Virus record (IMG/VR): IMGVR_UViG_2693429554_000021
Span: 1-9,788 of that record
DNA length: 9,788 bases
Reading direction: 5' to 3' (one strand)
Source of the DNA: a virus
Taxonomy: Duplodnaviria; Heunggongvirae; Uroviricota; Caudoviricetes
A program made the translations under genes and the position numbers. Below, piece by piece: positions 1 through 9,788 of the stretch; position 1 is the first letter of the stretch, and the number at the start of each line of letters is the position of its first letter. Below the pieces are notes generated by a model. The model was not told where the DNA came from. It searched no databases and was given only the letters and a program-made list of their open reading frames with translations.

Positions 1-483
1 ATGACGAAGAAAAAAGCACATAAACCTGGTTCAGCGACCATCGCGCTTAACAAGCGCGCCCGTCACGAATACTTTATCGAAGAAGAGTTCGAAGCGGGAC
101 TTGCCCTGCAAGGCTGGGAGGTTAAATCCCTGCGCGCAGGAAAAGCCAATATCAGCGACAGCTATGTCCTTCTGCGCGACGGAGAGGCATTTCTGTTTGG
201 CGCTAACATCACGCCAATGGCTGTGGCCTCCACGCATGTGGTGTGCGATCCTACCCGTACCCGCAAGTTACTTCTCAACCAGCGCGAACTGGACTCATTG
301 TACGGTCGCGTCAATCGAGAAGGCTATACCGTAGTGGCGCTCTCCCTGTACTGGAAAAATGCCTGGTGCAAAGTGAAAATCGGCGTCGCCAAAGGTAAAA
401 AACAGCACGATAAACGTTCAGATATCAAAGAACGCGAATGGCAGGTGGATAAAGCGCGTATCATGAAAAACGCCCATCGTTAA
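1..483 (+). CDS. smpB: SsrA-binding protein SmpB (160 aa, complete)
   Basis: The translation [33 protein letters not shown]... matches enterobacterial SmpB as I recall it; it sits immediately upstream of the tmRNA gene, the conserved synteny. Confidence 0.95.
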
Positions 484-677
484 ACCTATATAAGCGATAC
501 TAATCAAATCCTCACCGCGCCTCCCTATCCGGTGGCGCGAATGAACATCTTGTCGACTGTCAAATCTGACACAGATGTAGCCATCCCATTGCTTAATCGA
601 AAAAAAATAATACTATGCAGGCGCTAATTCCAGGATGATAACGCCTTTTGGGCTAGTCATGCTGCTCATAAATCTGG

Positions 678-683
678 TATACT
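678..683 (+). promoter_or_regulatory. Candidate -10 hexamer (TATACT) of the ssrA promoter
   Basis: TATACT lies about 15 nt upstream of the mature tmRNA 5' end (GGGGCTG at 698); a weak -35 candidate TAGTCA sits at 654-659 with 18-bp spacing. Pattern-based only. Confidence 0.4.
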
Positions 684-697
684 TACCGTTACACATT

Positions 698-1060
698 GGG
701 GCTGATTCTGGATTCGACGGGATTTGCGAAACCCAAGGTGCATGCCGAGGGGCGGTTGGCCTCGTAAAAAGCCGCAAAAAATAGTCGCAAACGACGAAAG
801 CTACGCTTTAGCAGCTTAATAACCTGCTTAGAGCCCTCTCTCCCTAGCCTCCGCTCTTAGGACGGGGATCAAGAGAGGTCAAACCCAAAAGAGATCGCGT
901 GGAAGCCCTGCCTGGGGTTGAAGCGTTAAAACTTAATCAGGCTAGTTTGTTAGTGGCGTGTCCGTCCGCAGCTGGCAAGCGAATGTAAAGACTGACTAAG
1001 CATGTAGTACCGAGGATGTAGGAATTTCGGACGCGGGTTCAACTCCCGCCAGCTCCACCA
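698..1060 (+). ncRNA. ssrA: tmRNA (SsrA), 363 nt, from GGGGCUGAUUC to the 3' ...GCUCCACCA
   Basis: Canonical 5' GGGGCTGATTCTGGATTCGACGGG and 3' GGGTTCAACTCCCGCCAGCTCCACCA ends of the tRNA-like domain; internal tag ORF GCA AAC GAC GAA AGC TAC GCT TTA GCA GCT TAA TAA at 787-822. Confidence 0.95.
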
Positions 1061-1106
1061 AAATTCTCCATCGGTGATTACCAGAGTCATCCGATGAAGT
1101 CCTAAG

Positions 1107-1139
1107 AGCCCGCACGGCACAAGCCCTGCGGGCTTTTTT
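1107..1139 (+). terminator. Rho-independent terminator downstream of ssrA
   Basis: Stem AGCCCGCA (1107-1114) pairs with TGCGGGCT (1127-1134), followed by TTTTTT. Confidence 0.7.
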
Positions 1140-1194
1140 GTGTCTTCAATTTGTCCCGCGAAGTCCGAAGAGAACTAATTAAATCCGAACCTTT

Positions 1195-1245
1195 TAGGCC
1201 CATTGATAGGCCCAACGAAAAGCTCTATTGTTTTCGTTGGGCCTA
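1195..1245. repeat. Repeat cluster upstream of the integrase start: two direct TAGGCCCA copies plus a perfect 15-bp inverted repeat
   Basis: TAGGCCCA at 1195-1202 and 1207-1214; TAGGCCCAACGAAAA (1207-1221) is the exact reverse complement of TTTTCGTTGGGCCTA (1231-1245), with a 9-nt spacer. No U-tract follows on either strand, so it is not an intrinsic terminator. Confidence 0.6.
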
Positions 1246-1263
1246 AACGCATGGAGACTCCCC

Positions 1264-2454
1264 ATGGCAAGAAAAACCAAGCCGTTAACCGATACGGAAA
1301 TCAAAGCCGCCAAACCTAAAGATGCCGATTACCAGCTTTATGATGGTGATGGGCTGACCCTGTTAATAAAGTCCAGCGGTAGTAAGCTCTGGCAGTTCCG
1401 TTACTATCGGCCTCTAACCAAACAGCGAACCAAGCAGAGCTTCGGTGCCTACCCTGCTGTCTCCCTTTCTCATGCGCGTAAACTCAGAGCTGAATCTCGA
1501 GTTTTGTTGGCAAAAGATATTGATCCTCAGGAACACCAGAAAGAACAGGTGAGGAATTCTCAAGAGGCCAAAACCAACACCTTCTTGTTAGTTGCCGAGC
1601 GTTGGTGGAATGTGAAGAAAGCCAGCGTAACAGAGGACTATGCCGACGATATCTGGCGCTCGCTTGAGAGAGATGTTTTCCCAGCAATCGGTGATATCAG
1701 CGTCACTGAGATTAAGGCTCATACTCTGGTTAAAGCTGTTCAGCCGGTTCAGGCCAGAGGTGCATTAGAGACTGTTCGCCGCCTTTGTCAGCGTATTAAC
1801 GAAGTCATGATTTATGCGCAGAACACAGGCCTGATTGATGCAGTTCCCAGTGTAAATATCGGAAAAGCGTTCGAGAAACCGCAAAAGAAAAACATGCCGA
1901 GTATCCGTCCGGATCAGCTTCCACAGTTAATGCAAACAATGCGTACAGCAAGTATCAGTATGTCAACGCGGTGCTTGTTCATGTGGCAGCTTCTCACCAT
2001 TACCCGCCCTGCCGAAGCCGCTGAGGCACGATGGGATGAGATCGATTTCAGTGCTAAAGAATGGAAAATTCCAGCAGCTCGTATGAAGATGAACCGAGAC
2101 CATACGGTTCCACTATCGGATGAGGCTCTTTCTATTCTGGAAATGATGAAGTCACTCAGTGGTGGCCGAGAGTTTATCTTTCCCAGTCGCATCAAACCAA
2201 CCCAGCCAATGAACAGCCAAACAGTTAATGCCGCACTTAAGCGTGCTGGCTTAGGAGGCGTACTCGTATCACACGGTTTACGCTCTATCGCTAGTACGGC
2301 ACTCAATGAGGAAGGATTCCCGCCTGATGTCATTGAAGCAGCACTGGCTCATGTAGACAAAAATGAGGTACGTCGCGCTTACAACCGCAGTGATTACCTT
2401 GAGCAACGTCGTCCGATGATGCAGTGGTGGGCTTACTTTGTAGTGGCACACTGA
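1264..2454 (+). CDS. intA: P4-type tyrosine integrase (IntA-like), 396 aa as encoded; last four codons and the stop are supplied by the IS left end
   Basis: MARKTKPLTDTEIKAAKPKDADYQLYDGDGLTLLIKSSG... is the N-terminus typical of P4-family integrases next to ssrA; C-terminal HxxR...Y region (ALAHVDKNEVRRAYNRSDY) is present. ATG at 1264 with GGAG 7 nt upstream; the ORF-track start at 1228 is an upstream TTG. Codons 2440-2454 lie inside the IS inverted repeat. Confidence 0.9.
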   Translation: MARKTKPLTDTEIKAAKPKDADYQLYDGDGLTLLIKSSGSKLWQFRYYRPLTKQRTKQSFGAYPAVSLSHARKLRAESRVLLAKDIDPQEHQKEQVRNSQEAKTNTFLLVAERWWNVKKASVTEDYADDIWRSLERDVFPAIGDISVTEIKAHTLVKAVQPVQARGALETVRRLCQRINEVMIYAQNTGLIDAVPSVNIGKAFEKPQKKNMPSIRPDQLPQLMQTMRTASISMSTRCLFMWQLLTITRPAEAAEARWDEIDFSAKEWKIPAARMKMNRDHTVPLSDEALSILEMMKSLSGGREFIFPSRIKPTQPMNSQTVNAALKRAGLGGVLVSHGLRSIASTALNEEGFPPDVIEAALAHVDKNEVRRAYNRSDYLEQRRPMMQWWAYFVVAH

Positions 2455-2510
2455 ATTTGGCCACCTGAACAGAGGTGATATGCTCACCTCAGAACAACAC
2501 AGGTGCTCCA

Positions 2511-3681
<1,171 letters not shown>

Positions 3682-3689
3682 CCACTACA

Positions 3690-3780
3690 CTACCTTCAGA
3701 TACGATGCTGCCTCTTCACGAGTGAAGATTTCTTCTTCCACCTGGAATCTCCATTTATTGAGTTGGTATTATTGCGGTAG
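3690..3780 (+). other. Possible displaced 3' end of the integrase gene (about 30 codons in frame with the pre-insertion intA frame)
   Basis: Joining the sequence before the IS to the sequence after it keeps the intA frame open to TAG at 3778-3780. A 30-codon open stretch has a fair chance of occurring randomly, so this is weakly supported. Confidence 0.35.
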
Positions 3781-3807
3781 GTCTGGATATCATTGAGCAA
3801 TGAACAG

Positions 3808-3836
3808 GCCTCATCGAGTGTGAGGCGGTGTTATTT
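3808..3836 (+). terminator. Candidate hairpin plus U-rich tract between the convergent intA tail and the 114-aa gene
   Basis: GCCTCA (3808-3813) pairs with TGAGGC (3821-3826), followed by GGTGTTATTT. Short stem and interrupted U-tract. Confidence 0.3.
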
Positions 3837-3841
3837 CATGG

Positions 3842-4186
3842 TTAGTCCTTGCGTAGCTCGCTGATTCTTCTGTAAGTCTCTGGTGCTTTGTTTCCGTGTA
3901 TCTTCATTTCTGACTTCAACAGAGCAACGAGGGAATCCCATTCGTTGAGGATGCCTTTGAATGCCGGAACGCGCTTTGCAACCTTGTCGAATGAATCTCT
4001 GATTTCTGGAATCTGCTCAACAAGTGCAACGCATCGTCTGAAATCGGCTGCGTCATGTGGAGCACCGAAGCTATGACCATAGATATTCTTTTTCAGTCCA
4101 CATGCGATTGAGGCAAGAGTTGCGCTACTGATGCCAACATCGCCAGTCGATTGCCATTTCAAAACCTTCATAGCCAAATCTGACAT
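3842..4186 (-). CDS. Hypothetical protein, 114 aa, no family recognised
   Basis: Uninterrupted minus-strand ORF (MSDLAMKVLKWQSTGDVGISSATLASIACGLKKNIYGHSFGAPHD...) with GGAGA 7 nt upstream of the ATG; AT-rich composition by eye. Function unknown. Confidence 0.6.
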   Translation of the reverse strand: MSDLAMKVLKWQSTGDVGISSATLASIACGLKKNIYGHSFGAPHDAADFRRCVALVEQIPEIRDSFDKVAKRVPAFKGILNEWDSLVALLKSEMKIHGNKAPETYRRISELRKD

Positions 4187-4200
4187 TTCTTGTCTCCAAT

Positions 4201-4226
4201 AAAAAAACCGCCATCAGGCGGCTTGG
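4201..4226 (-). terminator. Strong intrinsic-terminator-like hairpin with a U7 tract, 15 nt upstream of the 114-aa gene start
   Basis: On the minus strand: GCCGCC-TGAT-GGCGG followed by TTTTTTT, then the RBS GGAGAC and the ATG at 4186. Confidence 0.6.
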
Positions 4227-4381
4227 TGTTCTTTCAGTTCTTCAATTCGAATATTGGTTATGTCTGCATGTGCTATCTGCGCCCATATTATCCAGTGGTC
4301 ATAGCAGTCGTTGATGTTCTCTGTTTCGATAACCCTGTTGAATGGCTCTCCATTCCATTCTCCTGTGACTCGGAAGTGCAT
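4214..4381 (-). CDS. Possible small ORF, 55 aa, acidic, unknown function; stop codon sits in the loop of the 4201-4226 hairpin
   Basis: Hand translation of the minus strand gives MHFRVTGEWNGEPFNRVIETENINDCYDHWIIWAQIAHADITNIRIEELKEHQAA; it is below the ORF-track size cutoff. GGGGA lies 6 nt upstream of the ATG. It contains four ATA codons and no room for a dedicated promoter, so the call is uncertain. Confidence 0.3.
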   Translation of the reverse strand: MHFRVTGEWNGEPFNRVIETENINDCYDHWIIWAQIAHADITNIRIEELKEHQAA

Positions 4382-4394
4382 TTATCATCCCCAT

Positions 4395-4418
4395 AAAACA
4401 AAACTCGCCGTAGCGAGT
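4395..4418 (-). terminator. Second terminator-like hairpin downstream of the PACE gene
   Basis: On the minus strand: ACTCGC-TACG-GCGAGT followed by TTTTGTTTT. Confidence 0.4.
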
Positions 4419-4423
4419 TCAGA

Positions 4424-4451
4424 TAAAAGAAATCCCCGCGAGGGCGGGGAT
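4424..4451 (-). terminator. Intrinsic terminator downstream of the PACE gene
   Basis: On the minus strand: ATCCCCGC-CCTC-GCGGGGAT (8-bp stem) followed by TTCTTTTAT, about 70 nt after the PACE stop. Confidence 0.6.
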
Positions 4452-4523
4452 GTTAAGTCGGTGGGGGTACAGTATGGATATCGAAAATTATTGCGCGATT
4501 TTCATTACTCCCCTGGGAAAACA

Positions 4524-4982
4524 TTATCTGGCAAGCATACGTTGTTGATGCTGTTTCACAACACGTAAACGTAAGCTGTCATAGGCCCAATTGTAGAACA
4601 TGGTATATGGTAGAAAGAAAAGGAAGAATCCTATCTCTAGTGTAAAAGCCTGTAACAGACTGACGCTCAGAATCCAGGACACCATAATGACGCCGATCGC
4701 GATAAATCCACTTTCAAAGCCCAAAGCATGGAATGCACGAACTTTTGCAGTTCGTTTTACCTGATGAGCAGGCCAGTAGCGATCAAATAGCATGTTATAG
4801 ATGATATTCCAGATCATTGCAGTTGAAGCCAACAAGATAGTCATCCCGCCCATTTCGAGTATAGTTCGCTGCATTAACCATGCTGTGGTGGGGGCCAGAA
4901 TCGCAGTGGCAATTCCTTCAAAGCAAATAGCGTGAAAAATACGCTCAAGTAACGATCTGCGTTGAATCGCATTATGTTGCAT
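4524..4982 (-). CDS. PACE-family (AceI-like, BTP domain) small membrane efflux protein, 152 aa
   Basis: Two tandem repeats each carrying the R-x-F-H-A-x-x-F-E motif (ERIFHAICFEGIATAIL and VRAFHALGFESGFIAIG), hydrophobic segments consistent with 4 TM helices, size about 150 aa, and a divergent LysR partner as in aceI/aceR. GAAAGG RBS upstream of the ATG. Confidence 0.8.
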   Translation of the reverse strand: MQHNAIQRRSLLERIFHAICFEGIATAILAPTTAWLMQRTILEMGGMTILLASTAMIWNIIYNMLFDRYWPAHQVKRTAKVRAFHALGFESGFIAIGVIMVSWILSVSLLQAFTLEIGFFLFFLPYTMFYNWAYDSLRLRVVKQHQQRMLAR

Positions 4983-5031
4983 AACTTACCTTTCTTACAG
5001 TTTCGACCGCGTTATGGAGTTGTGAGATTTT

Positions 5032-5048
5032 TATCGATTTATGTGATA
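5032..5048. promoter_or_regulatory. Candidate LysR-type regulator binding box (TATC-N9-GATA, a T-N11-A motif) in the divergent promoter region
   Basis: TATCGATTTATGTGATA lies between the divergent PACE and LysR starts; it fits the generic LTTR consensus. Pattern only. Confidence 0.4.
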
Positions 5049-5085
5049 TATAAAAGATAGATACCATCGAAAAAATTGATAGATT

Positions 5086-5970
5086 ATGCGTTACTCACTT
5101 GAAGCGTTAAGTACATTTGTTGAAGCGGTTTCCTGTGGCTCCTTTTCTGCTGCGGCACGAAGATTACGCAAAAGTCAGTCCGCAGTCAGTACGTCAATTG
5201 CCAATCTTGAGGTCGATCTTGGTATATCATTATTCGATCGCTCTTCGCGAGAACCTGTGCTGACAGAGGAAGGAAAGAAAGTATTGAGTTACGTTCATGC
5301 GATTTTGTCAGCCAGTGAACGTCTTGAGGAGGTGGCGGTTTCGCTTGCCGGAGAGACTGAAGCTCGTCTGACGTTTGTGCTTTCCGATACCCTACACCCT
5401 GACTTATTAGAAGACATCATGGTGCAGTTTGATAGTCAGTTTCCACATACTGAGTTAGAGGTTTTAATTGGTGAGGATGTCGATGTCATCGATCTTTTGC
5501 AAAAAGAACGAGCGCAGATCGGCTTAATTGAGTCTCGGGAACACTACCCCACCGATATTGGCTCAACCCGTTTACCGATGCAAGCGTGGATGGGCATTTA
5601 TGTTTCGGCGTCACATCCACTGTCTGCAGAAAAAACAATCCAGCGGGAACAACTTCATTCATGGCGAGAACTTCGTCTTAATACTTATATCGATAACCGG
5701 GAGATGATTGCCCGTGGACCGGTTTGGTCTGCACCTAACTATTTGTTGTTACTCAGTATGGCCGTACAGGGATTTGGCTGGTGCTCTCTGCCCTGTGCTC
5801 TGGTTGAGGAGTTTGCAACAGAAAAACCGCTGGTTCAGCTCGACGTACCTGGCTGGCCAAAGGCAATTTCTATCGATCTGCTTTGGAATAAAAAATCGCC
5901 ACCAGGCGCGGCTGGAAATTGGCTTAAGCATCATTTACAGCATATCAATGCCCCAAATAGTCGAACTTAG
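5086..5970 (+). CDS. LysR-type transcriptional regulator (AceR-like by context), 294 aa
   Basis: N-terminal HTH signature LEALSTFVEAVSCGSFSAAARRLRKSQSAVSTSIANLEVDLGISLFDRSSREPVLTEEG; length and divergent arrangement are typical of LTTRs. Confidence 0.85.
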   Translation: MRYSLEALSTFVEAVSCGSFSAAARRLRKSQSAVSTSIANLEVDLGISLFDRSSREPVLTEEGKKVLSYVHAILSASERLEEVAVSLAGETEARLTFVLSDTLHPDLLEDIMVQFDSQFPHTELEVLIGEDVDVIDLLQKERAQIGLIESREHYPTDIGSTRLPMQAWMGIYVSASHPLSAEKTIQREQLHSWRELRLNTYIDNREMIARGPVWSAPNYLLLLSMAVQGFGWCSLPCALVEEFATEKPLVQLDVPGWPKAISIDLLWNKKSPPGAAGNWLKHHLQHINAPNSRT

Positions 5971-6171
5971 ATTAGTTAAAATATGGAATCCTGAAATAAT
6001 CTATGTTGATATGTGGAGCCATCTTCCAGGCTCCCACCTAAATCATGTTAGCAGTTCCATTTTTTTGATGATTTCCGCATGAGCATCATCGTTATCCCCA
6101 GCGACAAATTGAATACAAAACCAGTGCTACCGCCATTGCAATTCCTACCGTTGCGAATGCTTCAGGCCAGC

Positions 6172-6954
6172 TCATTGATTCACCTCCTGCGGCGGTTCTG
6201 GTAGTGGCATCCAATTGATTACATCGCATTCAGGGATGCTGATATCATCACCAAGCCACCCTTGACCTTCAGACCAGCATTGCGCGTAATACCCGTATTC
6301 TGTGTTCACTACGCACCACTGCGCGTCGTTCGGCATTCGCTCACTACAGCTTATCCAACTATCCGGAGTTACCGGAAGCGAGAACGGCAGCACATCTCTG
6401 TGAACAAGTTTTTGCTGTGACAGGTTATCCAGAACTTTCTGTACTGCTGCATCACCGAATACACCAAGCGCATCTGCCATAACTCCTACAACCTGATAAG
6501 CCTCAGCGCATACCGTGGATAAACCATCCGGAATTACCGGAGAGTTGCCGGGTTCTTTAATGTGCAAGCGAGGCTCACCATCTTTTGGCTCAGGCCACTG
6601 GCGCTCCATGTTGATCTTCAATTTATCTTCCATAGCAACGTTAATTTCAGCATCGCTGATGCCAGCACGGCGTTGTGCATCCCACAACAGAAACTGCATA
6701 TCAGCCCACTCGCTAAGATCGTCTGGTTCGGCTGCGGCTTCCAGTGCCTCTTTTGAGAGGTGTTTCAGTGGACCAATGGGGCCAACGCAGCCAAATGTGG
6801 AGTCAGACCATTTGGCATGCTCGTGGCGAATCTGTTCGCGTTCCAGTGATGCCAGTGCAATTCGTGCCAGTTCCATTTGTTCGCCACGAGTAAGCCCGTT
6901 TTCAAGCGGATTTTTAATGAACAATTCAATACGTTCTTTGGTAATAGTGGTCAT
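6172..6954 (-). CDS. Phage protein with an N-terminal MazG-like nucleotide pyrophosphohydrolase region (DUF550-like) and a C-terminal DUF551-like region, 260 aa
   Basis: N-terminal ExxE...ExxD pattern (KEALEAAAEPDDLSEWAD) of all-alpha NTP pyrophosphatases; C-terminal ...CDVINWMPLPEPPQ resembles the phage DUF551 signature. ATGA overlap with the upstream gene at 6951-6954. Domain calls are from memory of family motifs. Confidence 0.7.
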   Translation of the reverse strand: MTTITKERIELFIKNPLENGLTRGEQMELARIALASLEREQIRHEHAKWSDSTFGCVGPIGPLKHLSKEALEAAAEPDDLSEWADMQFLLWDAQRRAGISDAEINVAMEDKLKINMERQWPEPKDGEPRLHIKEPGNSPVIPDGLSTVCAEAYQVVGVMADALGVFGDAAVQKVLDNLSQQKLVHRDVLPFSLPVTPDSWISCSERMPNDAQWCVVNTEYGYYAQCWSEGQGWLGDDISIPECDVINWMPLPEPPQEVNQ

Positions 6955-7160
6955 GTGTTAATCCTCAAAACTTTATGCCCGGGCGCAAAAGTACGTGTTT
7001 TGTCTTTGCTTATTCGCCACCCATCTTTACGGGCCTCTTTTGCACAACCAGACCATGACGTACCGATATACTCACCGAAGTCTGGCACTGGATATACACC
7101 TTCCGTACACTGGCGACAATCACAATAGAGATGCATGGTATAACTTGCGGCAATAGCCAT
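6951..7160 (-). CDS. Small Cys-rich hypothetical protein, 69 aa, possibly metal-binding
   Basis: MAIAASYTMHLYCDCRQCTEGVYPVPDFGEYIGTSWSGCAKEARKDGWRISKDKTRTFAPGHKVLRINT; the internal ATG at 7160 has GGAGA 5 nt upstream and lies next to the Ea22-like stop. The ORF-track extension to 7283 overlaps the upstream gene. Confidence 0.5.
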   Translation of the reverse strand: MAIAASYTMHLYCDCRQCTEGVYPVPDFGEYIGTSWSGCAKEARKDGWRISKDKTRTFAPGHKVLRINT

Positions 7161-7161
7161 A

Positions 7162-7710
7162 TCAGTCTCCTTTGATGCGAATACCAGCAGCGCGGATAGA
7201 TTTCCATTGTTCCCACATGCGGTTGAAGTCTGTTCCTGATAAGGTCGCGTTACGGTATCCAGTTTCGGTGCGCAATCCTTCAAGCGTCGATTTGGAAATA
7301 CAAATTGAATGCATTACCCATGATTCAAACAAATCACGCTCCCGAGCTTCGCAACTTTGTTTACTCATCTCTTCAATGCATTGTTTAGCTTCTAAATCAG
7401 CAATTCTGTCAACCACGGCATCGACAGCATCTGAAAAGCCGAACCAGTTGCTCCACTCCGGCCTGTTACCGGTTGCTGCAAAGTACATATCATCTAAAGC
7501 AGACTCAGCATGGTCACGCTCGTTAATGAGTTGCTCTTCGCTTTTCTCCAGTTCTGCAATACGCTTGTTTTGGGATTCCCGTTCATCCAGCAGCGCCAGC
7601 ACAATCGATGGTGTTACCAGCTCATGGAAAAGGTCCGCATCAAATCCCCAGTCGTCATGCATTGCCTGCTCTGCCGCTTCACGCAGTGCCTGAGAGTTAA
7701 TTTCGCTCAC
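7162..7710 (-). CDS. Ea22-like early-left operon protein, 182 aa
   Basis: Same length as lambda Ea22, and the N-terminus MSEINSQALREAAEQAMHDDWGFDADLFHELVTPSIVL matches my recollection of Ea22; GTG start overlapping the upstream stop (GTGA). Confidence 0.65.
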   Translation of the reverse strand: MSEINSQALREAAEQAMHDDWGFDADLFHELVTPSIVLALLDERESQNKRIAELEKSEEQLINERDHAESALDDMYFAATGNRPEWSNWFGFSDAVDAVVDRIADLEAKQCIEEMSKQSCEARERDLFESWVMHSICISKSTLEGLRTETGYRNATLSGTDFNRMWEQWKSIRAAGIRIKGD

Positions 7711-7928
7711 TTCGAACCTCTCTGTTTACTGATAAGCTCCAGATCTTCCTGGCAACTTGCACAAGTCCGACAACCCTGAACGGCCAGACGTCTTCGTTCA
7801 TCTATCGGATCGCCACACTCACAACAATGAGTGGCAGATATAGCCTGGTGGTTCAGGCGGCGCATTTTTATTGCTGTGTTGCGCTGTAATTCTTCAATTT
7901 CTGATGCTGAATCAATGATGTCTGCCAT
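7707..7928 (-). CDS. TraR/DksA-family C4 zinc-finger protein, 73 aa
   Basis: C-x2-C-x17-C-x2-C motif (CCEC...GCRTCASC) and overall similarity to F-plasmid TraR (...CEACGNPIPEARRK...C.EC). Confidence 0.8.
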   Translation of the reverse strand: MADIIDSASEIEELQRNTAIKMRRLNHQAISATHCCECGDPIDERRRLAVQGCRTCASCQEDLELISKQRGSK

Positions 7929-7983
7929 CTTTCATTAATCCCTGAATTGTTGGTTAATACGCTTGAGGGTGAATGCGAATAAT

Positions 7984-8004
7984 AAAAAAGGAGCCTGTAG
8001 CTCC
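7984..8004 (-). terminator. Candidate intrinsic terminator inside the early-left operon, between the orf61-like and TraR-like genes
   Basis: On the minus strand: GGAGC-TACAG-GCTCC followed by TTTTTT. Short 5-bp stem. Confidence 0.4.
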
Positions 8005-8026
8005 ATGATGATTTTGTTTTTCATGC

Positions 8027-8242
8027 TCACCGTTCCTTAAAGACGCCGTTTAACATGCCGATCGCCAGGCTTAAATGAGTCGGTGTGAATCCCATCAGCG
8101 TTACCGTTTCGCGGTGCTTCTTCAGTACGCTACGGCAAATGTCATCGACGTTTTTATCCGGAAACTGCTGTCTGGCTTTTTTGATTTCATAATTAGCCAG
8201 ATGGGCAATGCTGCGAAGGGCGTTTTCTTGCTGAGGTGTCAT
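8027..8242 (-). CDS. Lambda orf61-like small protein, 71 aa from the MTPQQ start
   Basis: MTPQQENALRSIAHLANYEIKKARQQFPDKNVDDICRSVLKK...; the ATG at 8242 overlaps the stop of the upstream small ORF (ATGA). The ORF-track start at 8308 is less likely. Confidence 0.55.
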   Translation of the reverse strand: MTPQQENALRSIAHLANYEIKKARQQFPDKNVDDICRSVLKKHRETVTLMGFTPTHLSLAIGMLNGVFKER

Positions 8243-8322
8243 TGAACAAGTCCCATGTCGGCAAGCATAAGCACACAGAATATGAAGACCGCTGCCAGAA
8301 AAATGCATTCAGTGGTTGTCAT
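8239..8322 (-). CDS. Possible 27-aa hydrophobic peptide, translationally coupled on both sides
   Basis: Hand translation gives MTTTECIFLAAVFIFCVLMLADMGLVQ; its ATG overlaps the orf63 stop (ATGA at 8319-8322) and its TGA overlaps the orf61-like ATG (ATGA at 8239-8242). No strong Shine-Dalgarno. Confidence 0.25.
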   Translation of the reverse strand: MTTTECIFLAAVFIFCVLMLADMGLVQ

Positions 8323-8510
8323 ACCTGGTCTCTCTCATCTGCTTCTGCTTTCGCCACCATCATTTCCAGCTTTTGTGAAAGGGATGCGGCTAACGTATGA
8401 AATTCTTCGTCTGTTTCTACTGGTATTGGCACAAACCTGACTCCAATTTGAGCGAGGCTATGTGCCATCTCGATACTCGTTCTTAACTCAACGGGAGATG
8501 CTTTGTGCAT
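8319..8510 (-). CDS. Lambda orf63-like protein, 63 aa
   Basis: [63 protein letters not shown]; same size and position relative to exo as lambda orf63. Confidence 0.65.
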   Translation of the reverse strand: MHKASPVELRTSIEMAHSLAQIGVRFVPIPVETDEEFHTLAASLSQKLEMMVAKAEADERDQV

Positions 8511-8665
8511 ACAGCTCCCCGTTTATTATTTATCTCCTCAGCCAGCCGCTGTGCTTTCAGGGGATTTCGGATAACAGAAAGGCCGGGAAATACCCAGCCT
8601 CGCTTTGTAACGGAGTAGACGAAAGTGATCGCGCCTACCCGGATATTATCGTGAGGATGCTTCAT
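8483..8665 (-). CDS. Lambda orf60a-like protein, 60 aa
   Basis: [60 protein letters not shown]; the ATG at 8665 forms an ATGA overlap with the exo stop, as in lambda. The ORF-track start at 8671 is two codons upstream. Confidence 0.65.
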
Positions 8666-9342
8666 CGCCATTGCTCCCCAAATACAAAACCAATTTCAGC
8701 CAGTGCCTCGTCCATTTTTTCGATGAACTCCGGCACCATCTCGTCAAAACTCGCCATGTACTTTTCATCCCGCTCAACCACGACATAATGCAGTCCTTCA
8801 CGCTTCATACGCGGGTCATAGTTGGCAAAGTACCAGGCATCTTTTCGCGTCACCCACATGCTGTACTGCACCTGGGCCATGTAAGCCGACTTTATGGCCT
8901 CGAAACCACCGAGCCGGAACTTCATGAAATCCCGGGAGGTAAACGGGCATTTCAGCTCAAGGCCATTGCCGTCACTGCATAAACCATCGGGAGAGCAGGC
9001 GGTGCGCATACTTTCGTCGCGATAGATGATCGGGGATTCAGTAACATTCACGCCGGAAGTGAATTCAAACAGAGTTCTGGCGTCGTTCTCGTACTGTTTT
9101 CCCCAGGCCAGCGCCTTAGCATTAACTTCCGGAGCCACACCGGTGCAAACCTCAGCCAGCAGGGTGTGGAAGTAGGACATTTTCATGTCAGGCCACTTCT
9201 TTCCTGATCGGGGCTTTGCTATCACGTTATGAACTTCTGAAGCGGTGATGACGCCGAGCCGTAATTTGTGCCATGCATCATCCCCCTGTTCGACAGCTCT
9301 CACGTCGATCCCGGTACGCTGCAGGATAATGTCCGGTGTCAT
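8662..9342 (-). CDS. exo: Lambda exonuclease (Red-alpha), 226 aa
   Basis: [65 protein letters not shown]... is near-identical to lambda Exo as I recall it; ATGA overlap with the bet stop. Confidence 0.95.
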
Positions 9343-9788
9343 GCTGCCACCTTCTGCTCAGTGGCTTTCTGTTTCAGGAATCCAAGAGCTTTCACTGCTT
9401 CGGCCTGTGTCAGTTCTGACGATGCGCGAATGTCGCGGCGAAATATCTGGGAACAGAGCGGCAATAAGTCGTCATCCCATGTTTTATCCAGGGCGATCAG
9501 CAGAGTGTTAATCTCCTGCATGGTTTCATCGTTAACCGGAGTGATGTCGCGTTCCGGCTGACGTTCCGCAGTGTATGCAGTATTTTCGACAATGCGCTCG
9601 GCTTCATCCTTGTCATAGATACCAGCAAATCCGAAGGCCAGACGGGCACACTGAATCATGGCTTTATGCCGCAACATTCGTTTGGGATGCGACTGCCACG
9701 GTCCGGTGATTTCTCTGCCTTCGCGGGTTTTGAATGGTTCGCGGCGGCATTCATCCATCCATTCGGTAACGCAGATCGGATGATTACG
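9339..9788 (-). CDS. bet: Lambda Bet (Red-beta) single-strand annealing protein, C-terminal 149 codons; N-terminus lies beyond the window edge
   Basis: ...[68 protein letters not shown]...KATEQKVAA matches the lambda Bet C-terminus; the frame is open to the window end. Confidence 0.95.

Follow-up and report, generated by a model that had tools for sequence, protein, structure and literature searches.

A PACE-family efflux gene and its divergent LysR-type regulator as probable cargo of lambdoid prophages in Escherichia coli

The window analysed here is a 9,788-nucleotide stretch of viral DNA (Duplodnaviria; Heunggongvirae; Uroviricota; Caudoviricetes; IMG/VR record IMGVR_UViG_2693429554_000021, positions 1 to 9,788). 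It holds a gene for a PACE-family transporter and a divergent gene for a LysR-type regulator, placed between a P4-type integrase gene next to ssrA and a set of lambda-like phage genes. Which element carries this pair, and what might the pair do? A preliminary description, made from the letters of the window alone, had taken it to be cargo of an element integrated at ssrA. We consider it likely instead that the pair is a self-contained, regulated efflux unit of two genes borne by prophages, and that its adjacency to ssrA comes from a join at an IS3 element.

The PACE gene (4524-4982, minus strand) encodes a protein of 152 amino acids which, judged from its sequence, unambiguously belongs to the PACE family. 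It matched the Pfam BTP model PF05232 in two stretches (E = 2.8e-44, 149.4 bits), that is, as tandem BTP domains. It also scored above the cut-offs of the NCBIfam models NF033665 (the enterobacterial 'multidrug/biocide efflux PACE transporter'; 205.6 bits against 165) and NF033664 (PACE_transport; 169.8 bits against 80), and it missed that of the AceI equivalog NF033663 (93.8 bits against 180). The identical protein WP_001164448.1 is named 'multidrug/biocide efflux PACE transporter' in RefSeq/PGAP. The motifs that define the family, 1A and 1B (RxxhaxxfE) and 2A and 2B (of the WN..YN..FD type) (PMC6195760), could all be read in the pump. Motifs 1A and 1B, both of the form RxFHAxxFE, are R14-IFHAICF-E22 and R82-AFHALGF-E90, and motifs 2A and 2B are W58NIIYNMLFD (residues 58-67) and Y126TMFYNWAYD (residues 126-135). 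The two halves of the pump align with each other, and Glu22 sits in helix 1. A hydropathy scan gave hydrophobic stretches at about residues 14-34, 41-66, 83-115 and 103-129, compatible with four helices. The preliminary description had read a PACE-type membrane protein with a duplicated R-x-F-H-A-x-x-F-E motif and had proposed a BTP profile search as a check; the profile match, the NCBIfam scores and the motifs all bear this reading out.

A sequence search of the PDB with the pump returned no PACE structure, the PHROGs database held no family that matches it, and tblastn against isolated phages found no match in any genuine isolated-phage genome. PACE genes turned up only in two kinds of record filed under phages, a 691-kb contig of Salmonella houtenae and contigs of 49-379 kb under the name 'Acinetobacter phage MD-2021a', and both look like misfiled bacterial sequence.

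The regulator gene (5086-5970, plus strand) encodes 294 amino acids with the Pfam domains HTH_1 and LysR_substrate and diverges from the pump gene across a control region of 103 bp (4983-5085). Its best NCBIfam family was the AceR model NF052373, with 126.9 bits against an equivalog cut-off of 500. In the PDB it matched 8j4n best (E = 1.4e-31); 9iyz and 8wpa, DNA-binding domains of AceR, followed at E of about 4e-13. By its sequence the protein is best classed as an AceR-like LysR-type transcriptional regulator (LTTR), not as AceR.

The control region contains two ATC-N9-GAT dyads with a T-N11-A core, which are candidate LysR sites: one proximal to the PACE gene at 5033-5047 (ATCGATTTATGTGAT) and a second at 5066-5080 (ATCGAAAAAATTGAT). 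They are 33 bp apart, about three helical turns, and the second ends 5 nt (5081-5085) ahead of the LysR start codon. The motif alone is not significant, with four occurrences in the whole window against 3.19 expected. However, two dyads fall inside the 103-bp spacer, where about 0.03 would be expected, and in an alignment with the orthologous spacers from Salmonella, Citrobacter and one further relative neither the dyads nor the stretch that separates them varies (TATC...CGATA columns 4/4). The weight of the dyads thus comes from their clustering within 103 bp and their invariance across genera, not from the motif count. In the same alignment the ~67 nt nearest the LysR gene are kept in Salmonella and Citrobacter and the ~40 nt nearest the PACE gene have diverged. 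Candidate -10 and -35 elements picked by hand in the spacer were dropped, as they are not conserved in this alignment. An Rfam scan of the window found the transfer-messenger RNA (tmRNA) only, with no riboswitch or small RNA at the PACE/LysR locus.

Every PACE pump studied so far has a divergent LysR gene, and AceR is an activator with two sites (PMC4406071; PMC5961012). AceR has been footprinted at these two sites (PMC5961012), and the two-dyad layout of the window spacer matches this. The two domains, the divergence and the predicted T-N11-A sites in the spacer are together those of an LTTR with a divergent target. The aceI/aceR architecture of the preliminary description was likewise confirmed, and the single T-N11-A box it had placed between the genes proved to be two dyads.

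What surrounds the pair is phage backbone, which resumes by 4456 on the left and by 6047 on the right (matches at 4400-4456 and 6047-6100). The left joint (4400-4456, minus strand), of lambdoid or P22-like type, is conserved, with 94-96% identity to phages 933W and HF4s and to many Shiga toxin (Stx) phages. In HF4s and 933W it lies between ea/ASCH genes and a small xis-adjacent open reading frame (ORF) of 55 aa in HF4s and 104 aa (L0063) in 933W, so that these phages carry ASCH and Ea genes at the joint where the pair sits here. Shortly after the PACE stop codon, a terminator scan found two terminator-like hairpins in this joint (4451-4432 and 4420-4401). When the window was compared with phages and plasmids by megablast, only such backbone joints of 50-60 nt were found. 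Farther left are a 114-aa ORF (hyp114; 3842-4186, minus strand) and a 55-aa ORF (hyp55; 4214-4381, minus strand), both phage backbone by their PHROG matches (phrog_1229, E = 1.9e-51, and phrog_676, E = 1.3e-37). In related prophages these two ORFs separate the pair from xis or torI. Beyond the LysR gene, 6172-9788 (minus strand) is occupied by lambdoid early-left genes, which have annotated equivalents in E. coli genomes.

The pair was found in 14 of 5426 complete E. coli genomes (0.26%), with one chromosomal copy each at 99.7% identity or more, and megablast and sensitive blastn gave the same count. Seventeen other E. coli copies differ from the window copy by at most five single-nucleotide polymorphisms (SNPs) in 1447 bp, and none of the 18 has either ORF disrupted. 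An identical pump gene is present in three IMG/VR viral contigs. The carriers include isolates from soil, water, goat, dog and cattle. Direct inspection covered 12 of the 14 complete genomes; LR778146 and LR778142 were grouped with LR778152 by an identical match profile. LR778152 has the same integrase protein as the tRNA-Thr prophages described below, the tRNA itself being out of view, and the tRNA-Thr placement of Z1323HEC0355 was judged from its match profile alone. For contigs, 10 contexts were displayed from the 25 longest contigs carrying the gene, with similar places collapsed.

Four settings were seen. At tRNA-Thr (thrW), beside proA, the order is lambda-type integrase, IS3, hyp114, hyp55, PACE, LysR, ea genes, exo, bet and gam, and the carrier is a degraded lambdoid prophage. 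At tRNA-Arg (argW), in a setting like that of KplE1/CPS-53, the order is torI, hyp114, hyp55, PACE and LysR; the prophage is fuller in Rb-50, and elsewhere the carriers are remnants stripped of almost all other phage genes. Adjoining torS in VCSW7, int, xis, hyp114, hyp55, PACE and LysR are followed by the complete lambda gene order (...exo-bet-gam-kil-cIII-N-cI-cro-cII-O-P-nin-Q-lysis, then terminase, head and tail). In a long contig (L031) the pair adjoins ybhC, the lambda attachment site.

Comparison of these loci establishes the pair, at the level of sequence, as a near-invariant 1.4-kb insert in the xis-proximal early-left ('ea') region, and so as phage-borne accessory cargo (a 'moron'). 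Both the lambda-type gene order and the occupation of the site by other genes in related phages are those of lambdoid morons. Since the contexts lie at four attachment sites and 933W and HF4s have other genes in its place, the pair has been recombined onto several integration modules. With a GC content of 0.43-0.47 (0.30 in the spacer) against 0.48 for the whole window, it is moderately AT-rich. The preliminary description was right in that the pair is horizontally mobile, AT-shifted phage cargo. The survey of prophages that it had called for found the pair in lambdoid prophages and remnants at four sites, but never at ssrA among the 14 genomes and the displayed contigs.

Two features of individual carriers were also seen. 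In some tRNA-Thr copies (2015C-4136CT1, locus 3753-5123; L029) IS3 lies ~120-130 bp from the 3' end of the pump gene and hyp114 and hyp55 are missing, which points to an IS-adjacent deletion. In the VCSW7 prophage (NZ_CP082357.1, 2847223-2858681) the major capsid gene is split by an insert of ~11 kb that has an integrase gene of its own and further genes for a primase, SSB, an Icd-like protein, both a major capsid and a head decoration protein, and one abortive-infection protein. By its gene content this insert looks like a capsid-forming phage satellite inside the capsid gene of the prophage.

How does the pair come to stand near ssrA in the window? The ssrA gene (698-1060, plus strand; ARAGORN and Rfam tmRNA) is followed by the P4-type integrase gene intA (1264-2454, plus strand; ORF map with Pfam and NCBIfam scans). 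Next comes an IS3-family element of 1251 bp with a frameshifted transposase gene (2439-3689, plus strand; ends TGTAGTGG...CCACTACA). The whole window is present in none of the 5426 complete E. coli genomes. Strain EC12, where the order is ssrA, intA, IS3, an integrase fragment and espC, matches bases 1-3689 at 100% identity, and the prophage at tRNA-Thr in 377323_2f and Z1323PEC0014 matches bases 2436-9788, also at 100%. The overlap of the two matching halves is IS3 alone. In sequence the window IS3 is identical to the one at ssrA in EC12, and a single SNP distinguishes it from the one at tRNA-Thr in Z1323PEC0014. Its left flank reads CTT and its right flank CTA, so that no target-site duplication brackets it; at tRNA-Thr, by contrast, the element has a clean duplication of 3 bp, CTA/CTA (loci L001 and L002). 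In the places shown from 24 long contigs, the intA-IS3 junction always continues into the integrase fragment, mostly then into espC, and never into the PACE gene. The pair itself was found at ssrA neither in the 14 complete genomes nor in the 10 displayed contexts.

The link to ssrA is thus unsupported, since its sole bridge is an IS3 copy whose flanks do not match as a target-site duplication. From these matches the ssrA-intA-IS3 segment is assigned to a different island, of EspC type, and not to the PACE carrier, and the join in the window is most likely an assembly artefact across the 1.25-kb IS3 repeat. Whether the join is artefact or real, the P4-type integrase is not the vehicle of the pair.

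That the pair and the lambda-like module are cargo of one element, integrated at ssrA by the P4-type integrase, was the view of the preliminary description, and we regard it as very improbable. It has on its side the contiguity of ssrA, intA, IS3, the pair and the lambdoid genes in the window, and ssrA is a well-known integration hot spot. But continuity independent of the repeat, and reproduced in closed genomes, was not found; the whole window occurs in no complete genome, the flanks of IS3 are CTT/CTA here and CTA/CTA at tRNA-Thr, and intA-IS3, in the closed genomes and long contigs looked at, runs into the integrase fragment and usually the EspC island. The pair, moreover, always stands beside lambda-type int/xis or torI at other sites. 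That the window is correct, and that a real IS3-mediated recombination or rearrangement brought the degraded prophage from tRNA-Thr up to the ssrA island, is possible but doubtful, and the pair would then still be prophage cargo. Identical IS3 copies at both loci in the lineage would be a substrate for homologous recombination, and since the IS3 at ssrA in EC12 likewise has no target-site duplication (CTT/AAT), this locus has undergone IS-mediated rearrangements before. On the other hand, 377323_2f, Z1323PEC0014 and Z1323HEC0355, all closed genomes, have both junction types on the same strand, and their two IS3 copies are direct repeats 2.2-2.6 Mb apart, so that a single crossover would split the chromosome. 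Neither the 5426 complete genomes nor the places displayed from 49 long contigs have the join, and a repeat of 1.25 kb is a classic cause of short-read misjoins.

Some details of the ssrA side were seen in passing. IS3 interrupts intA at its 3' end, and the terminal repeat of the IS supplies the last four codons of the gene (V-V-A-H) and its stop codon. The 396-aa IntA matches positions 1-395 of the 413-position PRK09692 profile and keeps the RRAY tyrosine region. In EC12 (11439-13505 of locus L004) a second integrase, truncated at its N terminus and starting around residue 165, follows IS3 upstream of espC; this layout suggests an earlier IS-mediated deletion or a fusion of tandem islands upstream of espC. 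A composite transposon, with two IS3 copies bracketing the remnant prophage, was considered and dropped, the second IS3-family element in L001 and L002 being only 64% identical.

Where did the pair come from? The nearest proteins outside Escherichia are PACE transporters of Citrobacter and Salmonella, with 79-84% amino acid identity. These genera have the same divergent LysR/PACE pair between the thiolase gene yqeF and the permease gene yqeG, near kduI/kduD, and E. coli K-12 has nothing between yqeF and yqeG. Sequence and gene order show the pair to be the orthologue of this chromosomal pair, which is absent from the Escherichia core genome. DNA similarity to the Citrobacter/Salmonella pair (73-76%, blastn against loci L013-L017) spans 4522-5942, starting at the stop codon of the pump gene, and goes no further, so the captured unit is that of the two genes. 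Against the orthologues dN is 0.10-0.14 and dS is saturated, and the GC content at third codon positions (GC3) is 0.42-0.44 in the pair against 0.58-0.72 in the orthologues. More diverged homologues are widespread in Enterobacteriaceae. A donor search of 185,579 species-representative genomes found nothing closer than 83%. Either the donor is unsampled, or the unit may have been resident in phages for long.

A bolder version, which we think unlikely, is that the pair, instead of having been imported recently from Citrobacter or Salmonella, is the last survivor of a lost yqeF-yqeG locus of Escherichia, or of an unsampled sister, and persists only in temperate lambdoid phages. These phages would shuttle it among attachment sites as a regulated exporter of diamines or cations that benefits lysogens. 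If true, this would be the first documented phage-transduced PACE pump and would answer the open question of the 2018 PACE review on mobilisation in E. coli. Apart from phages, the clade has a second route of mobilisation: the Enterobacter hormaechei plasmids NZ_CP114989.1 and NZ_CP126871.1 (51-59 kb) carry a PACE gene whose product is 73% identical to the window protein.

How the prophage-borne unit might work can be proposed from characterised relatives. By analogy with AceR/AceI, a LysR tetramer would bind the two ATC-N9-GAT dyads and autoregulate, and on meeting a cationic inducer it would activate a weak PACE promoter, as AceR does (PMC5961012; PMC4406071). The pump would act as a dimer in which Glu22 couples the export of a short-chain diamine (cadaverine or putrescine) to protons, and acriflavine-type biocides would be weak secondary substrates. 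The backbone hairpins (4401-4451) would terminate transcription. PMC9045395 and PMC7382281 give the dimeric state, the proton antiport and the helix-1 glutamate of PACE pumps. Cadaverine and putrescine are the physiological substrates proposed for the family (Hassan 2019, as cited in PMC9972920 and PMC9045395), and a list in PMC9972920 has the Salmonella orthologue STM14_3648 as a putative diamine pump.

A relative from E. coli has been assayed. A 2015 study cloned a rare E. coli PACE gene, ECTW07793_0407 of strain TW07793, and noted its association with phage and transposase sequences (PMC4337561). With it the minimum inhibitory concentration (MIC) of acriflavine was 6.25 against 3.125 ug/ml, about 2-fold, and that of chlorhexidine rose marginally, to 0.39-0.78 from 0.195-0.39 ug/ml (PMC4337561, Table 1). 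This gene is probably the same as the window pump, because the Glu22 numbering is shared, the frequency is similar (~0.2%) and the flanking sequences are of the same kind. TW07793 is an O157:H39 atypical enteropathogenic E. coli (PMC5039186), a pathotype that would fit the EspC-island lineage seen here.

Two other roles have to be weighed against that of a regulated efflux unit. The pair could be mainly a biocide-resistance determinant (chlorhexidine, acriflavine, benzalkonium), selected by disinfectants and spread by phages. Overexpressed PACE pumps do confer such phenotypes (PMC4337561; PMC6195760), the TW07793 homologue had the MIC effects just given, and the NCBI name of the clade is 'multidrug/biocide efflux'. 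These effects, however, are at the resolution limit of the MIC and needed overexpression, and the Salmonella orthologue gave none (PMC4337561). The pair occurs in only 0.26% of complete E. coli genomes, soil, water and animal isolates among them, and is not enriched in clinical settings. The Citrobacter and Salmonella orthologues examined are chromosomal and syntenic, and related copies are widespread in Enterobacteriaceae, from which it follows that the family predates biocides, as also argued in PMC6195760. We hold this role to be quite improbable. Of the 'biocide or polyamine tolerance module' in the preliminary description, the biocide part was overstated, the effect in this clade being a weak, ~2-fold one on acriflavine or none (PMC4337561); the polyamine part is kept in the diamine export proposed above.

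The pair might also be a neutral hitch-hiker in a recombination-prone phage region, of no benefit to phage or host. Its rarity in E. coli, its place in the mosaic 'ea' region where phages swap unrelated genes, and the decay of several carriers to remnants would agree with this. Yet both ORFs are intact in all 18 copies with so few SNPs, and the pair survives in tRNA-Arg remnants that have lost nearly all phage genes; such intact ORFs in deleted prophages hint at retention by selection. In addition, dN/dS (the ratio of nonsynonymous to synonymous substitution rates) against the orthologues is far below 1, though most of the divergence predates capture. Neutrality is in our judgement unlikely.

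Several points nevertheless weigh against a mobile, regulated efflux unit as we describe it. The one full-length carrier prophage examined, that of VCSW7, has a disrupted major capsid gene, and for this reason present-day transfer by infection remains a proposal. A promoter scan gave four sites against 3.4 expected, which is not above chance, and no promoter was assigned from it. The proposed substrate is extrapolated from AceI, a distant relative by its equivalog score (93.8 against a cut-off of 180). The closest orthologue assayed, Salmonella STY3166, gave no resistance, and the E. coli homologue gave only ~2-fold (PMC4337561); the identity of that homologue with the window pump, moreover, is one that we only infer. 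In a neighbour-joining tree of PACE and LysR, without support values, the E. coli allele is a long branch outside Citrobacter plus Salmonella. As to the join at IS3, sequence alone fits both a misjoin and a real rearrangement.

Like the NF033665 clade, which includes ECTW07793_0407, Salmonella STY3166/STM14_3648 and Klebsiella KPK_0842, each with a divergent LysR gene, the window pump scores above the cut-off of that model. With the Citrobacter and Salmonella members it shares 79-84% identity, the divergent LysR gene and the conserved operator dyads. Unlike theirs, which is fixed in the chromosome between yqeF and yqeG, the window pair lies inside lambdoid prophages, has a lower GC3 and forms a long branch outside their group. 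PACE pumps are usually core chromosomal genes, and aceI is one of these. Like AceI/AceR of Acinetobacter baumannii, the pair has two BTP domains, a helix-1 glutamate, motifs 1A, 1B, 2A and 2B and a divergent LTTR; AceR likewise has two operator sites, which are upstream of a weak pump promoter (PMC5961012; PMC6195760). Both window proteins, in contrast, fall below the equivalog cut-offs of AceI and AceR, and the operators differ, being of the AGAACAACTTCT type in AceR and ATC-N9-GAT in the window.

The pair also resembles lambdoid early-left 'ea/b' morons, being a discrete insert with its own regulator, a contrast in composition and a terminator-like joint, and being placed between xis and the ea/exo genes, a position that unrelated genes fill in other phages. 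It differs from known lambdoid morons in that the cargo is a PACE pump, with no PHROG family and no match in a genuine isolated phage, and from morons that depend on phage promoters in that it brings a dedicated LysR gene. EmrE, a pump of the SMR family on the cryptic prophage DLP12, is another small efflux pump borne by a prophage. SMR pumps on prophages have thus been known before (PMC5840245).

The pump is of a known kind, as it is already annotated in RefSeq and a rare E. coli PACE gene, probably the same, was studied in 2015. New here are the exact vehicle and insertion point, the several attachment sites, the chromosomal orthologue and the corrected reading of ssrA. The addition to a described family is incremental, and the resistance phenotype to be expected is weak. 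Still, one rare E. coli PACE gene now has a concrete vehicle, the xis-proximal variable region at four or more attachment sites, which is of use in the surveillance of biocide-tolerance genes and offers a natural system for testing PACE function in E. coli. The locus also teaches that adjacency across an IS copy should not be taken as shared membership of one mobile element.

The remaining genes of the window are smpB (1-483, plus strand; ORF map) on the ssrA side and, on the lambdoid side, five genes identified by Pfam, all on the minus strand. These are a dATP/dGTP pyrophosphohydrolase-DUF551 gene (6172-6954), an Ead/Ea22 gene (7162-7710), a TraR/DksA gene (7707-7928), exo (YqaJ; 8662-9342) and the 3' part of bet (9339-9758). 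In the 260-aa product of the ORF at 6172-6954, the dATP/dGTP pyrophosphohydrolase domain (residues 42-137) is fused to DUF551 (residues 199-256); PGAP calls a shorter protein of 227 aa at this locus. The tRNA-Arg remnants have only a truncated form of this gene, fused to a fragment of intS. The tmRNA tag, encoded at 787-822, is ANDESYALAA (GAA AGC TAC), the same sequence as in EC12. The tag of K-12 is ANDENYALAA, and the difference in the window would then be AAC to AGC.

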